A DNA stretch of 64,000 nucleotides, taken from positions 64,001 through 128,000 of the forward strand of contig CAVTHO010000005.1 in assembly GCA_963734545.1 (NCBI GenBank), read 5' to 3'. The position numbers were made by a program, and so were the translations under genes. The notes beneath the pieces are model-generated. The model was not told the DNA's origin. It saw nothing but the letters and a program-made list of their open reading frames with translations, and ran no database searches. Origin of the DNA: an uncultured Spirochaetota bacterium (GTDB taxonomy: Bacteria; Spirochaetota; Spirochaetia; SZUA-6; Fen-1364). Shown one piece after another: positions 3,990-63,339 of this stretch (the stretch's first letter is position 1; the number at the start of each line of letters is the position of its first letter).

Positions 3990-4826
3990 TCAGCCCACCA
4001 GCTTCAGGATCCTTTCCCGGAACGCCACGTAGCCGCAGCAGATGAGCACCAGCGCGGAGCCAGCCAGGGTGGCGGCACGCATCTTCTCTCCGAACACGAT
4101 GACCCCGAGAAGCACGTTGAGCACGGGCACGAGAAAGGCCAGGAGGCTTCCCTCCGTGGCCGGCACGTGCTTGTACGCCCAGGTCATGGCAAGCTGCGCC
4201 GCGGTGGCGAGGGCGCCGACGCCCAGAAGTATCAGCCAGATCCGGCCGCCGAATGCAAAGGAGCTCGTCAGGGTGGGCCACCCGACCACGAACAGGCCGA
4301 AGATGCACTGCGCGAGGTAGATAACGTACGGTGTATCCGTCTCGCGAAGTTTCTTGATCGCGACCACCGCGATACCGGAGAGGACACCGCCCAGGAGGGC
4401 CAGCAGCTCCTCCACGCCAACCGACTGAATCCGGCCCGGATTCACCACGAGCGCGATTCCCAGGAATGACACGAGCACCGCCACGACCACGTCCCAGGAC
4501 AGCTTTTCCTTCAGCATCAGGGGAGCAAGCAGAGCGGCAAAGACGGGGTAAGTGTAGTTGAGGATCGTGCCTTTCCCCAATCCCAGCATCGTGATGCCCC
4601 GGAAGAAGAAGTAGACCGAGGTGGCGCCGATCAGGCCGCGGGCGATCAGCCACCAGCGGTTGACCGGCTTCAAGCGCGTGACTCCCGCCAGGGCAAGCCC
4701 CACTATTACCACGATCCCCGTGACAAACCGGGCCGAGGCCACGAGCGAGGTGTTGACCGACCGCAGGAGGGGGATCAGCAGGGACATGGCGGAAAACAGC
4801 ACGCTGGATGCGGCCATGACAGCCAT
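3990..4826 (-). CDS. DMT/EamA family transporter
   Basis: About 10 hydrophobic segments in two EamA repeats (YTYPVF...LKEK); GGAGG before the ATG at 4826; alternative start 4865. Confidence 0.85.
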   Translation of the reverse strand: MAVMAASSVLFSAMSLLIPLLRSVNTSLVASARFVTGIVVIVGLALAGVTRLKPVNRWWLIARGLIGATSVYFFFRGITMLGLGKGTILNYTYPVFAALLAPLMLKEKLSWDVVVAVLVSFLGIALVVNPGRIQSVGVEELLALLGGVLSGIAVVAIKKLRETDTPYVIYLAQCIFGLFVVGWPTLTSSFAFGGRIWLILLGVGALATAAQLAMTWAYKHVPATEGSLLAFLVPVLNVLLGVIVFGEKMRAATLAGSALVLICCGYVAFRERILKLVG

Positions 4827-55166: not shown

Positions 55167-55940
55167 GTGCTGCTCGCCGTGTCCGTTGGCAATTCGCATA
55201 TTATCTTCGGGGTTCACGAGAATGGGGGTTGGATCCATCGCTGGAGGATCCAGACCGTGCCTGCCAAGACCTCGGACGAGTACCAGGCCCTCCTGCGAAC
55301 GCTCTTCGATGCGGCGGGACTCGGGGCCGCGCGGATCGATTCCGCAATCCTTTCCAGCGTCGTCCCTCCCCTCACCAACACAATGGTGGAAATGGTGCTC
55401 CAGCTCGCCGGCAGACAGCCTCTCCTCCTCGGACCTGCACTGGATCTGGGCCTTCGGATCACCACGGAGAATCCGGCGGAGGTAGGCGGGGATCTCGTGG
55501 CGAACGCCGTGGCGGCGTACGACAGGTTCCATGGCAACTGCATTGTCATCGACTTCGGCACGGCCCTCACTTTCACCGCGGTCGCCGCTCCGGGAGAGCT
55601 GCGGGGGGTGGCAATCGCTCCCGGTCTCAGCTCGGCGGTCAACTCTCTGGCTCACGACACGGCGCAGCTTCCGCGGATCCCCCTTGCGCCTCCGCCTGCG
55701 GCGGCCGGCAGGAACTCGGTTCATTCGATCCAGGCAGGCATCGTGCTCGGCTACATTGGTCTTGTGGAGGGCCTCATCTCCCGATTGCGGAAAGAGCTGG
55801 GCGGCTCAGCCGGGGTCGTTGTGACCGGGGGACAATCCCAGATCATGGCACCCCTTCTGGCAGGACCCGTGGTCCACGAGCAATGGCTGACCCTGGAAGG
55901 ACTGAGGATCGTCGCGGAGAGAAACTCAGGACGACCCTGA
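55167..55940 (+). CDS. coaX: Type III pantothenate kinase
   Basis: VGNSHI, SSVVP, EVGGD, IDFGTA and VTGG...LTLEGL; TTGACA-16-TAAACT upstream. Confidence 0.92.
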   Translation: MLLAVSVGNSHIIFGVHENGGWIHRWRIQTVPAKTSDEYQALLRTLFDAAGLGAARIDSAILSSVVPPLTNTMVEMVLQLAGRQPLLLGPALDLGLRITTENPAEVGGDLVANAVAAYDRFHGNCIVIDFGTALTFTAVAAPGELRGVAIAPGLSSAVNSLAHDTAQLPRIPLAPPPAAAGRNSVHSIQAGIVLGYIGLVEGLISRLRKELGGSAGVVVTGGQSQIMAPLLAGPVVHEQWLTLEGLRIVAERNSGRP

Positions 55941-55961
55941 CGGGTACGGCTTTCGGGCCGA

Positions 55962-55998
55962 GCGCGTCCTCGCGCACTCCCGAACGGGTAACGCCCGT
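55962..55998. repeat. Degenerate REP-like double hairpin
   Basis: GCGCG-TCCT-CGCGC then CCGAACGGG-TAACG-CCCGT, similar to the copies at 11810 and 12772. Confidence 0.6.
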
Positions 55999-56047
55999 GC
56001 TGCTTTTCCTGCCCCCGCAGGACAGGATGCACGCCTCGCGCCGCCGG

Positions 56048-56522
56048 CTAATACGAAAGCATTGCGTTGAGCTTGCTCACGTGGGCCTGGTCCTCCGCGG
56101 TTACCGTTGCCAGGTCGGCTGCCAGCGGGGAGGCGGCCCGGAAGGTCTTTGAGCACGGCATAGAAGTCGACGATTTTCTGTTCCATCGAGACCCCGAACT
56201 TCAACGCTTCCGCATTGGACTCGATCTTTTTTGAGGAAATCAGCTCCTCGAGCGGGTCTGTGAACTCCCGGCGGAGGAGAGCATCCAGGGCTGCGCTCAG
56301 CCGGCCAGAGGCCGATTTGCCCTTCTTTTTCAGCATTTCCTGGAAGAGCACCTTATGCCGAGCCTCCTCCTCCCTGAGGAACCTGATCTCGTTCTTGACC
56401 CTCCGTTCGGGGCTCTTCTCGATAACGGCGGAGTAGAAGTCGTAGCCCTTCTGCTCCACGAGCACCGCCATCTGCAACAGGTCCTCCAGCTTGAACTCAG
56501 CAAGATTCCACTCACCTGCCAT
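56048..56522 (-). CDS. Ferritin-like/rubrerythrin family protein (frameshift near 56145)
   Basis: MAVLVEQKGYDFY, EEEARH, MEQKIVDFY and, after frame correction, AEDQAH. Confidence 0.8.
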
Positions 56523-56748
56523 GTCGTTCCTCCTCCGCCGGCAGCGCCTCGCCTTTGCGGGGAACGCCACACACCGTGATGACTCTGGCCCCGGACGCGG
56601 TAATTTGCAAGTGGCAGCCGCCTCAATTGTGCATTATAATCGTCCGTGGATGGGAGAATCCGCGGACATCATCATAGTCTCTTAGCGCGCCCGCGTGTGC
56701 CGCGTATGTGCCATGCGGTCGGCAGTCGGTAGCAAGGAGGAAGATTGT

Positions 56749-57154
56749 ATGCCGAAGAACAAGAAAAAGAGCCCCAAAGCCAAACCGGCCAAAAAGAAGG
56801 CTCCGAAGGCGAAAAAAGCGGCCAAGGCGAAGAAGCCGGTAAAGGCCGCAGTTGCGAAGGTCGGAGCGCGGGGACCAAAGGGCGAGCCGGGAGCTGCCGG
56901 GCGGCCGGGGGAAAGAGGGCCCCAGGGCCTGACAGGACCGCAGGGACTAATGGGACCGCAGGGGGCAAGAGGCGAGCCGGGGCCTCGAGGTGAACAGGGG
57001 CCTGTCCGGACAGAAGGGCGAGCCGGGAGCGGGGATTCGATATGCAGGCGGCATGACCGCCGCGTCTGCCCATTACCTCCTTGTGGAAGCGGACGGAACG
57101 CTCCGCTACGTCTCGAACGGAAGGACATTCACCGTCCAGGTGACATCGTCCTGA
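56749..57154 (+). CDS. Lys/Ala-rich (histone-H1-like) plus collagen (Gly-X-Y)19 protein; +1 frameshift near 57007
   Basis: AAGGAGG RBS; MPKNKKKSPKAKPAKKKAPKAKKAAKAKK; GAR GPK GEP...GPV/GQK GEP GAG; tail HYLLVEADGTLRYVSNGRTFTVQVTSS*. Confidence 0.78.
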
Positions 57155-57189: not shown

Positions 57190-57225
57190 GCTGCGGTATT
57201 CCGCAGCTCAGGCGCGGTACTCCGC
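57190..57225. repeat. Pair of REP-like hairpins between convergent genes
   Basis: GCTGCGG-TATT-CCGCAGC and GCGG-TACT-CCGC. Confidence 0.7.
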
Positions 57226-58446
57226 TAGCTCAGAAGCCGCACGGCAGCTCCCGCCGCAGCGCCCAGTCCGACAACCATCCAGGGCCTCGCGCGCCAGACG
57301 ACCAGGAGCATGAAGGCCGAAAGAGCGATGCAGAAATCAGGCACGCTTCGAATCGTGCCCGTCCAGCCGGGAGTGTAGAGCGCGGCGGCCAGCAGACCCA
57401 CGACCGCCGCGTTGATCCCCGCCAGCACGGACTGGAAAGCCGGTTTCGCGCGCAGCCCTGCCCAGAACGGAAGCACTCCCACCAGAAGCAGGAAGGACGG
57501 GAAGAAGATCGCGCCAAGCGCGATGAGCGCGCCGAGCACCCCGCTCGGTGACGGGCTCATGAGCGCGCCCAGGTAGGCGGCAAACGTGAACAGCGGCCCG
57601 GGCACGGCCTGCGCTGCTCCATACCCGGCCATGAACTGCGCCTCGCTGATCCAGGAGGAAAGAACGACCTCGCGGTGCAGGAGGGGCAGCACCACGTGCC
57701 CGCCGCCGAACACCATCGACCCCACCCTGTAGAAGCTCTCCACGAGCGCCAGCCAGTGAGCGGGAAAGCGTTCCCGCAGGACAGGGAGACCGGCAAGAAG
57801 AAGGAAAAAGAGGGAGAGACAGAAGTATCGATACCCCCCTCGGTATGTGAAAGGGGAAGTCGTCTCCCCGGAGATCGTTCCGCGCAGGAAGAAGCAGCCA
57901 CCCGACAAGACCGCCCGCCGCGATGAGAAGCACCTGCGCAAGGGCCGTGGGCAGCAGGATGCTGAGGACGGCGGCGATCACCGCCATGGTGGCGCGCTTC
58001 TGATCCGGTGCCAGCCGCGCGGCCATGCCCCAGAGTGCCTGGGCGACAACCGCGACTGCCGTGATCATGATACCGTGCAGCCATCCGGAGCTCAGAACGT
58101 CCAAAGCGCCCACGAGGAACGCGAACGCCACAAGGGCGACGGCGGAAGGAAGAGTGAACCCGGCCCAGGCCATGACGGCTCCCCAGGCTCCCGCGCGCGC
58201 GAAACCGATGGACATGTTCACCTGGCTGCTCGCGGGCCCCGGAAGCACCTGGCAGAGGGCGACCAGATCGGCGAATCCTTCCTCACTCAGCCAGGCGCGC
58301 CGTACGACATACGCATCGCGGAAGTAGCCGAGATGCGCGATGGGTCCGCCAAACGAGGTAAGCCCGAGACGAAGCGAGACCGCGAACACTTCGAGGACCG
58401 AGCGGACACGCGTCCGTGGGGGAATCATTCGCTCGCCGTCAGGCAC
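57225..58446 (-). CDS. chrA: Chromate efflux transporter (frameshift near 57835)
   Basis: LGLTSFGGPIAH, LPGPASSQ, VFGGGHVVLP and AQAVPGPLFTF. Confidence 0.9.
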
Positions 58447-60422: not shown

Positions 60423-61176
60423 TCAGTCCTGGCGCACCCACCGATCGCGGAACCGGACGAGGCGGTCCACCTGGTCGGTCACAATCATGCGCGCCGCATG
60501 GACCACGCGGGCGGCCTGCTCATCCGTGTTCACGGTCCAGAAGAGAAGCGAAAAACCCATGACCCGGAGCAGACCCAGCAGAAGAGAGGCGCGGCCCGCG
60601 CCAAGCCTTTCCACGAGCTGAATGGGAAGGTTGAGGTACTGCGGCCGCAGCCGAAGGAGAGCGCACACCACGGCGCCGGCGCCCCTGTCAAATGTCTCTT
60701 CGCCCAGAAGGAATCCCACCGTGAACCCGCGTCGCCTGAAGGGCAGGAGCAATTGCGGATCGAACGAGGACACCATGAGATTCCCCCTCTGGATCCGCGC
60801 ATCCAGAATATCTGCCAGGGGATCGCAATCATTGGAGGTGAGGGTTTCCGCTTTCAGCTCCAGGTCGAGGTAGCTGCCCGGAAGGGATGGCTTCCAGAAG
60901 CTCGGAGAGCTCAGGGACTCTCTCGCCGTTTCCGAAATCGAGGCGCCGCAAATCCTCAAAGGGCGTTCTTGCGATCTCTCTTCTGACGCCGGTCACCCGG
61001 TCGGTTGTGGGGTCGTGAATGACGACATAACGGCCGTCAGCCGTCTTCTGAATATCGCACTCCACGCCGTCGGCCCCGCCGGCCCAAGCCTTGTGGAAAG
61101 CGAGCAGAGTGTTCTCGGGATACAGGGCGCGGAAGCCCCGATGGCCGAGCACGAGCGGCCTTCTCCGAATCCGCAT
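60423..61176 (-). CDS. Glycerophosphodiester phosphodiesterase (frameshift near 60890)
   Basis: GHRG...PENTL.AF...VECDI, IHD; then LELK, SSFD, WTVN and VTD. Confidence 0.88.
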
Positions 61177-61283
61177 GCCAATGCATTAAGGAAGTGCCCG
61201 ACATATGTCAACTGGCGCTGCATTCCGCCGGGTACGTCGGCGCGCACGGCATGCGCGTGCGTCCTAGCGTCGCGGCAAGGCGC

Positions 61284-62253: not shown

Positions 62254-63100
62254 CCCTGCATCCCTTCCTTTGTCCGCGAGGTGAACCAGTCAATCGAGCC
62301 GGCGCGCAACCGTGATGGGGTCAGGCAGGCTGGGAAGCGCGTTCGCGGCATACCATCCGGCATCCAGGAGCTCGGATTCGTCGATCCTGATTTCTCCGCC
62401 CGCGTACTCCGCGGTGAAGGCGACCATGAGTGAATGGGGGAACGGCCACGGCTGGCTGGCGAAATAGCGGAGGTTCTTCACCTCGATACCGGTCTCTTCG
62501 CGCACCTCGCGCGCCACGCACTCCTCGAGGGTCTCCCCCGGTTCAACGTATCCGGCCAGCACGCTGTAGAAGCCGGGCGGAAACCTGCGGGCCCGTGCCA
62601 GCAGGAGCTTGTCTTCCTTCACGACCGCCACGATCACCGCGGGCGAGATTCGTGGATAGCTCAGGTGGCCGCACGACGGGCATTCCCGTGCGCGCTCTCC
62701 TTCCTTGAACGTCGTTGCCGCGCCGCACGTGCCGCAGAAGCGGTGGGTGCGGTCCCACTCCAGCACCTCCAGCGCGCGCGCTGCCACGGCGAAAAATCCA
62801 TCCGAGATCCGTCCGAAAAGAGATCGGATGCCTTCAAAGGTCCAGGCTTCGGGGGCGGGCACGTCGGTGGGGATCTCAACTGTCCTGCAGGGATTTCCGT
62901 CGGCCACTCCCAGGTAGTGCGCATGATCCACTTCGAGACCGAGGCTGGACAGGTCTTCGAGGAACGGCGAGCCGGCTGTTTCCCTCACCCGCGGAGATGA
63001 GAATCCTCCCGCCCTGAAAAATCAGCCAGTGTGAGGGGCCGGGAAGACGGGCCGGCTCCTGATTGCCAGGAGCGAACTCATCGAATGAGGGAACTATCAC
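62250..63100 (-). CDS. nudC: NAD(H) diphosphatase NudC (frameshifts near 62990 and 62295)
   Basis: FCGTCG, CPSC...YPRISPAVI, Nudix box GYVEPGETLEECVAREVREETG and SQPWPFP. Confidence 0.92.
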
Positions 63101-63339
63101 AGATTGGAAAATAGCAGGATAGCTTCTAAGTGAAAAGTGTATCAAAAATACCCACAATGGGCCATAATATTACGCCATGAGTCATAACACCACAGTTATT
63201 TGCCAAAACCCATGGGCCATTCGCTTGGCAGCCCCGGCATTAATTGTATACTCCATATGTATTTATATGAAATTGCCTACCTTGGCACGCATTCATGCTT
63301 AATGAGGGTGTGATTCATGAAACCAATAGGAGGTACGAT

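Follow-up and report, generated by a model that had tools for sequence, protein, structure and literature searches.

A small collagen-like protein with a lysine-rich tail and no recognisable export signal in an uncultured Spirochaetota bacterium

Collagen triple helices are found in bacteria in fibres of the surface, the spore coat or the virion, where they are formed without hydroxyproline, and the helix rises by 0.286 nm per residue. To our knowledge, every bacterial collagen that has been characterised stands on the surface, the spore or the virion. A small trimeric unit at the end of a rod, the foldon, has been used to nucleate collagen peptides.

A second group of described proteins carries low-complexity tails rich in lysine, alanine and proline. 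According to the available portions of the respective papers, the tail of AlgP localises to polyphosphate (polyP) granules and is needed for granule spacing, and AlgP binds DNA (PMC9239181), while the tail of PhaF is a DNA binder and tails of this kind tie granules to the nucleoid (PMC7590123). In the accessible text of a review on bacterial collagens the word "cytoplasm" is absent (PMC8968730), and our literature search, with supplements outside it, has found no description of a lysine-tailed or intracellular bacterial collagen.

Here we describe a gene whose product joins a tail of the second kind to a collagen region. It lies in a stretch of 64,000 nucleotides from an uncultured Spirochaetota bacterium, and the whole stretch analysed is called the window below. 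The architecture of this protein is really unusual, and its function, as we infer it, would lie inside the cell.

The gene, its reading frame and its predicted trimer

The gene starts at the ATG at 56749 and occupies 56749..57154 on the forward strand (134 codons plus the stop), which can be read in one frame only if a spurious T at 57005 is ignored. Its product consists of a tail of 38 residues, 19 GXY triplets and a C-terminus of 39 residues. A Shine-Dalgarno sequence, AAGGAGG (56734..56740, +), stands 8 nt before the start codon and is conserved in the orthologues of two related genomes, G014 and G002. Further upstream we have observed a sigma-70-like promoter candidate, GTGGCA-18-TATAAT (56611..56640, +), proposed from a 10/12 consensus match only; one such site was found upstream of the gene against a mean of 0.1 in shuffled sequences.

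The N-terminal Lys/Ala/Pro tail (56749..56862, +; residues 1-38) has 17 K/R and no D/E, i.e., a net charge of +17, with a lysine fraction of 0.45 and repeats of the PAKK/KAAK/KPAK type. Its length varies among the orthologues through in-frame insertions, up to 75 residues and a net charge of +28 in G002; the tail has gained repeats in frame during evolution with its composition kept. The collagen region (56863..57034, +; residues 39-95) contains 10 prolines and 12 charged residues among its 57 residues according to the translation, and it would span ~16 nm as a triple helix (57 residues x 0.286 nm per residue). It gives the only Pfam match in the protein, to Collagen (PF01391; E 1.1e-10, 41.6 bits against a cut-off of 27.2). 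The conserved C-terminal domain, which we call the knob (57035..57151, +; residues 96-134, IRYAGG...TVQVTSS), is predicted to be a three-stranded beta meander (HYLLV / LRYVS / RTFTV) with DG and NG turns, and is followed by the stop codon at 57152-57154. The maximal Kyte-Doolittle mean over 19 residues is 0.75 in the window protein, which therefore has no hydrophobic segment, and neither LPXTG nor a signal peptide nor a wall, membrane or exosporium anchor has been found in its sequence. This confirms the preliminary description, which had listed a K/A/P tail of 38 residues, 19 uninterrupted triplets, a beta-rich end of ~40 residues, a strong ribosome-binding site and the lack of a signal peptide, transmembrane segment and anchor.

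In the assembly as given, the frame opened by the ATG at 56749 carries the triplets up to GEQ GP and then 74 arbitrary residues ending at 57228, and the next frame carries GQK GEP GAG followed by the knob, so that one skipped base joins both frames. The remark made earlier that the ORF track mistranslates the C-terminus is thus correct, and so is the removal of a single base; the position proposed for it, near 57007, has to be moved. The DNA alignment (window cct gTc cgg, G002 cct g-cc, G014 ccc g-cg) places the inserted T at 57005 (57005..57005, +), and the true reading is therefore GEQ GPA GQK. Near-identical DNA was found in public wetland, sediment and soil metagenome runs, among which no RNA runs are listed. 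We compared contigs of four of the DNA runs (X1-X4), of which X3 and X4 do not cover 57005; the T is absent from the one covering contig each of X1 (depth 4.11/4.11) and X2 (6.82/6.82). This supports the earlier claim that the indel is an artefact and the gene whole.

The break is not the only one in this part of the window. Set against the intact G014 proteins, the reading frame shifts within five genes located between 55.1 and 63.8 kb: the ferritin-like gene (55926-56570, -; near 56130, with one base absent at 56135 in public contigs of X4), the family gene itself, chrA (57225-58446, -; near 57795-57823, with one base absent at 57823 in X1, X2 and part of X4), a GDPD gene (about 60441-61212, -; near 60876) and a NUDIX gene (about 62296-63118, -; near 62968). 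Since four neighbouring genes carry similar breaks, we regard the frame breaks as assembly errors. Behind the shift, the codon differences are 10 synonymous and 3 non-synonymous against G014, and 12 synonymous and 6 non-synonymous against G002, i.e., dS exceeds dN; judged by these codons, the window gene is under purifying selection. An assembly out of frame at 57005 would also result if the source organism had a pseudogene here or a site of programmed +1/-1 frameshifting. We have rejected both and consider them highly improbable, as the base is absent from both covering public contigs, the orthologues and all other relatives have the gene in one frame, the neighbouring genes break as well (two further break sites are contradicted by public contigs) and dS is larger than dN behind the shift. 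Single-base insertions are frequent in this assembly, so broken frames in it should not be taken as pseudogenes. As a side observation, one X4 contig skips 70 bases within chrA (window 57623-57694), the shorter side of the joint being only 20 letters long, and another organism may be its source.

For the knob, neither a Pfam family nor a PDB sequence relative has been found. Its monomer model is a three-stranded meander with a pLDDT of 84-88 over the strands; the best fold match has a Z of 2.6, and the matches are WW-like three-strand rows only. To model a homotrimer, as had been suggested before, we took residues 40-141 of the intact orthologue from G014 in three copies, together with 3 controls; over the last 48 residues this orthologue and the window protein are 94% identical. 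The model passes the controls, with an ipSAE of 0.73 against 0.00 for the best control, a partner pLDDT of at least 86, and three runs that agree in at least 94% of the contacts. Confident inter-chain contacts are predicted along the GXY part (residues 40-103 of the G014 orthologue) and within the knob (104-141). In the calibration of the mark used for this judgement, 21 of 30 proteins solved as one-chain pairs reached it and none of 23 solved as single chains did; because the calibration was done with pairs of copies, it applies to three only roughly. Likeness to solved triple helices may be the reason why the collagen part of the model passes, and the new information that the prediction offers is in the knob contacts. 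That the window protein would form a triple helix is a prediction.

The family and its genomic surroundings

The window protein is a member of an undescribed family. In the window's own genome (5.14 Mb, 10 contigs, 89% complete), the 54-residue C-terminal ORF is present in a single copy. Of 20 other genomes of this uncultured Spirochaetota genus, 17 yielded the family gene; it was not found in 40 genomes sampled from other genera of the same family and order. A profile of the C-terminal domain, run on 400 genomes sampled across the phylum, gave one further true member, a protein of 153 residues in a low-G+C genome from another class of Spirochaetota (G266); its second match (G374) was rejected as spurious, and no further member was found among 43 genomes of the class of G266.

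Searching 1.84 billion representative proteins with the knob profile has given 75 matches at E <= 0.001, of which 32 were inspected. Twenty-nine of these are small proteins (93-194 residues) of the same build with a single C-terminal match; the other three are repeat proteins that were matched via short hairpin motifs only, and they are not counted as members. The profile also matches several giant repeat proteins (P0003, P0013, P0014, P0035, P0046) through many short stretches. We do not take this as kinship of the knob with giant FG-GAP/propeller-like repeat proteins; it reads as a likeness of motif, i.e., a hydrophobic strand, a DG turn and a strand. A contig scan for the collagen motif GPQGPVGPQGPQG, written as a degenerate DNA pattern, was unspecific: the knob was present in 6 of 80 loci inspected, all six from Spirochaetota. 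A scan of metagenome contigs with one relative (P0037) returned unrelated collagens only, with no match to the profile of the knob or to that of the U proteins described below in 79 loci.

Among 51 members tabulated, nearly all start with M-(A/P)-K followed by lysines, and every tail is net positive, with a charge of +6 or more in 48 members. The tails of many relatives are of mixed K/E/D composition, with a net charge of only +6 to +11. The GXY run ranges from 0 triplets in two members that consist of tail and knob only (P0044, P0069) to 27 (P0042). Most members have an extra domain of ~35 residues between tail and collagen (consensus V.V..L.PGE.P.A..D..TG.L.L.IP.G), which is absent, judged by eye, from about a dozen, the window protein included. 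In the Atlas, this middle domain comes nearest to the Mtd_N cluster of phage-type fibres, at a sub-threshold score of 0.84, and for one relative the best score in the Protein Atlas was 0.88, below the useful range. From the comparison of the members, it follows that tail and knob are the constant parts and that the collagen is a spacer of adjustable length.

The maximal 19-residue hydropathy mean across the 51 members is 1.49, hence none of them has a TM-like segment. No signal peptide, lipobox or TM segment was found in 50 of the 51; the remaining one (P0038) is the only member with a signal-peptide-like start, and it lacks the lysine tail. As to what had been asked about homologues, the conservation of the basic tail and of the C-terminal domain holds throughout the table, at the charges given above. 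The three-part architecture is kept in its two ends but not as a whole, since most members have the additional domain and two have no collagen. Signal peptides in homologues, which had been named as an argument against an internal protein, are absent with the single exception of P0038, and TM-like segments are absent from all 51.

In the window, the gene is flanked by a ferritin-like gene in divergent and chrA in convergent orientation, with PanK upstream and MiaB downstream, and the same gene order surrounds it in G014 and G002. In the relatives, its neighbours are metabolic, polyP or regulatory genes, i.e., a chromosomal housekeeping context. Phage genes or a prophage tail module, the other location that had been said to speak against an internal protein, were found around none of the 17 loci examined, and a search of viral contigs, which reaches close relatives only, found no relative of the knob. 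The ferritin-like neighbour (L022:9031-9531 (-), equivalent to window 55926-56570 (-)) has ~166 residues and no Pfam match at 1e-5; its NCBIfam matches are only faint, with E 0.0095 for MbfA and E 0.019 for the encapsulin EncB ferritin-like cargo family.

In relatives, the collagen gene is immediately preceded by two small paralogous genes, U1 (~54 residues) and U2 (66-77 residues), the latter with a lysine-rich N-terminus of its own. Examples are the tandem pairs at L037:12911-13072 and L037:12668-12895 (-) and at L034:3780-3989 and 4011-4211 (+). The pair is present in 14 of the 20 genus genomes, always in tandem, and in 13 of these 14 it lies within ~0.6 kb upstream of the family gene; the order U1-U2-collagen recurs in the distant G266. 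In 10 of 17 loci, the next gene downstream of the collagen gene codes for a double-ACT protein of ~132 residues. The U family comprises 261 clusters at 90% identity, for which the names given by the source are all "hypothetical protein"; three with an organism are from Spirochaetia or Brevinematales. The U2 model (pLDDT 76.7) begins disordered, is extended over 14-20 and forms helices at 21-35 and 47-61; the solved folds nearest to it are, with few exceptions, ribbon-helix-helix (RHH) DNA binders (omega, CopA, ParD, TraM, PutA, NikR, ParG) at a weak Z of 3.5-4.5. No match of the U proteins was obtained by Foldseek against the PDB (for U2), in Pfam, in NCBIfam or by sequence search of the PDB. 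In some relatives, a SpoIIE-type PP2C phosphatase and several STAS (anti-sigma-antagonist-like) genes adjoin the collagen operon (L026:4927-7250, L028:10798-14229).

In the window's genome (89% complete) no U gene was found, and the only ACT relative there is 25% identical and located elsewhere; the pair was not found in G014 (74% complete) either. The window copy is thus a solo gene whose tail, rod and knob have been kept under selection. The C-terminal trimer knob, the RHH-like pair and the operon that they share in uncultured wetland spirochaetes are three components without a name in Pfam or NCBIfam.

A further feature of the surroundings is polyP. The family gene lies within 6 kb of a CHAD gene in eight genus genomes (G020, G008, G003, G011, G006, G017 at about 1 kb, G015 and G007), and 16-36 kb from it on the same contig in three more. 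The neighbourhood contains PhoU, Ppx/GppA, PPK1, CYTH-CHAD, a ParA/MinD-like ATPase and a metallophosphatase. Within it, PPK1 and CYTH-CHAD form a cluster with the ATPase (AAA_31) and the metallophosphatase in several relatives (L024:19-8603, L025:12794-19974, L026:66-4131, L029:13376-19989), which may be a granule-positioning set. Since these genomes are close kin, their synteny counts as a single observation. G266 has its CHAD on another contig than the family gene, whose neighbours there are acyl-CoA ligases and a TonB-type receptor. No CHAD, PPK1 or PPK2 was found in the window's genome at 89% completeness, and none of the three in its closest relative G014 at 74%.

Proposed working and competing explanations

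Overall, we tentatively favour the explanation that the window protein is a small cytoplasmic trimeric rod of ~16 nm which presents three polycationic tails to a polyanion, most likely DNA; this could well be correct, short of being probable. The C-terminal beta knob of ~39 residues would set three chains in register and lock them, in the manner of the foldon or the Scl2 V domain in other collagens, although the knob belongs to neither, and the 19 triplets would then zip into a rigid ~16-nm rod. At the opposite end, the three disordered Lys/Ala/Pro tails (~+17 each, ~+51 per trimer) would bind a polyanion without sequence specificity. In the source organism this would most likely be DNA, and the protein would be a multivalent nucleoid binder in the cytoplasm that bridges DNA segments via its three tails. 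Alternatively, it might act as a tether by which a partner, if the knob binds one, is held ~16 nm from DNA.

DNA is taken as the most likely ligand because K/A/P tails of like composition bind DNA in AlgP and PhaF, because the operon partners of relatives have a fold of DNA-binding type (at weak Z), and because the window's genome (89% complete) yielded neither polyP-synthesis nor CHAD genes. What supports the cytoplasmic rod as a whole is the intact and selected gene with its strong Shine-Dalgarno sequence, the lack of a TM-like segment throughout the tabulated members, the trimer model, the RHH-like partners in relatives and the lack of phage genes. Against it stand the surface, spore or virion location of the characterised bacterial collagens known to us, the signal-like start of P0038, the Mtd_N lead of the middle domain (0.84), the mixed charge of many relatives' tails and the window genome without the operon partners. 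As this genome has neither the RHH-like pair nor a close ACT partner, the operon argument is borrowed from the relatives. An extended form of the cytoplasmic rod, possible but rather doubtful, is that this is the first collagen working inside a bacterial cell: a ~16-nm spacer with its tails on the nucleoid or another polyanion and its trimeric knob holding a partner, within a spirochaete-specific system that includes two RHH-like proteins and the ACT protein and organises DNA or storage granules at a fixed distance.

Other explanations have to be weighed against the cytoplasmic rod. That the protein is an extracytoplasmic fibre, i.e., a short collagen stalk with a binding knob at the surface or in the periplasm, perhaps derived from a phage, exported by a non-classical route and anchored by its basic tail to an anionic envelope polymer, is unlikely in our judgement, even if known bacterial collagens are proteins of the surface, the spore or the virion. 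The domain schemes in the accessible part of the review point the same way (PMC8968730), and so do the P0038 N-terminus, the weak lead to Mtd_N and the PHROG matches, which are to tail-fibre families. Yet the PHROG matches lie almost entirely on the GXY stretch, 50 of 51 members have no signal peptide, lipobox or TM segment, no phage genes surround the 17 loci, the viral contigs have yielded no knob relative within the reach of a close-relative search, and the operon partners are small proteins of cytoplasmic type (RHH-like, ACT). An alternative that stays inside the cell takes the operon as its starting point: the order U1-U2-collagen in 13 genus genomes and in G266, together with the ACT gene directly downstream in 10 of 17 loci, would suit a spirochaete module of unknown role (RHH-like, RHH-like, collagen, ACT) with RNA, ribosomes or an acidic protein partner, and not DNA, as the ligand of the tail. 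The window's copy, in a genome without any of these partners, would then be a leftover with a reduced or changed function. This we think improbable, as the solo copy is still under purifying selection with a strong ribosome-binding site, its tail is of the most basic kind in the family, and nothing points specifically to RNA.

The polyanion could also be polyP, and the preliminary description had offered a polyanion scaffold as its second choice. This choice gains a lead from the many relatives whose gene lies near ppk1 or CHAD, and fits the window's genome poorly since no PPK1, PPK2 or CHAD was found there. Spelled out, the tails would bind polyP, and the rod would be a coat or spacer of the granule or tie the granule to the nucleoid, as in AlgP with its K/P/A tail at polyP granules (PMC9239181). 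CHAD is a polyP-binding module, according to the portions available of the paper concerned (PMC6537752), and the family gene is near CHAD in eight plus three genus genomes, in the neighbourhood of the polyP genes listed above. However, all these genomes belong to one genus and their synteny is not independent, the distant G266 has its CHAD on another contig, and the gene has been kept in both the window's genome and G014, in which neither CHAD nor PPK1 was found. A polyP-granule protein therefore seems quite improbable to us.

If the cytoplasmic rod holds true, a signal-less collagen with a histone H1-like tail would be a new use of the fold: inside the cell, it would serve DNA or another polyanion as a rigid, trivalent spacer. 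As the protein is small and easily expressed, trimer, triple helix without hydroxyproline, and binding of DNA or polyP could be put to the test within weeks. A trimerising knob of ~39 residues could in addition serve as a tag for recombinant collagens.

Comparison with known systems

The collagen-like phage tail fibres (PHROGs 819, 6320, 366 and 5073) share GXY repeats with the window protein, and in most of its relatives the collagen is preceded by a short beta-rich domain as a further likeness. The matches, however, fall almost entirely on the GXY part, and the window protein is small, has no phage neighbours and bears a knob for which the close-relative search found no viral counterpart. 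With the foldon of T4 fibritin, the knob shares its tiny size, its beta-hairpin build, its C-terminal place where a rod ends and its predicted role of keeping three chains in register; there is no match in sequence or fold, and each chain would contribute three strands where the foldon has one hairpin, so the likeness is in the proposed working only.

Closer in general plan are Scl1 and Scl2 with their V domain and BclA with its C-terminal domain. Like these, the window protein has an uninterrupted GXY stretch without hydroxyproline, rich in proline and charge, with a globular non-collagen domain beside it as the expected nucleus of the trimer. On a relative, the NCBIfam models for SclA, Lcl and SclB reach 31-45 bits against cut-offs of 325-500, on the GXY part only. 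Unlike Scl1, Scl2 and BclA, the window protein has no signal peptide, LPXTG or membrane anchor; its rod is far shorter (19 triplets), its knob is a three-strand unit of ~39 residues with no sequence relative in the PDB, and a histone-like tail stands at the opposite end. Since it has neither signal nor anchor, we place it outside the class of surface adhesins (Scl1/Scl2, Lcl, BclA).

The tail itself resembles those of AlgP, Hc1/Hc2, HupB/MDP1, PhaF and PhaM in being of low Lys/Ala/Pro complexity with repeats of PAKK/KAAK type, in having no acidic residues and in varying in length through the gain of repeats. Because the sequence is of low complexity, this likeness to histone H1-like tails is one of composition and not of demonstrable homology. 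In contrast to these proteins, where such a tail is joined to a helical or HU-type domain, the window protein has it at the N-terminus, and would present it in three copies on a collagen rod.
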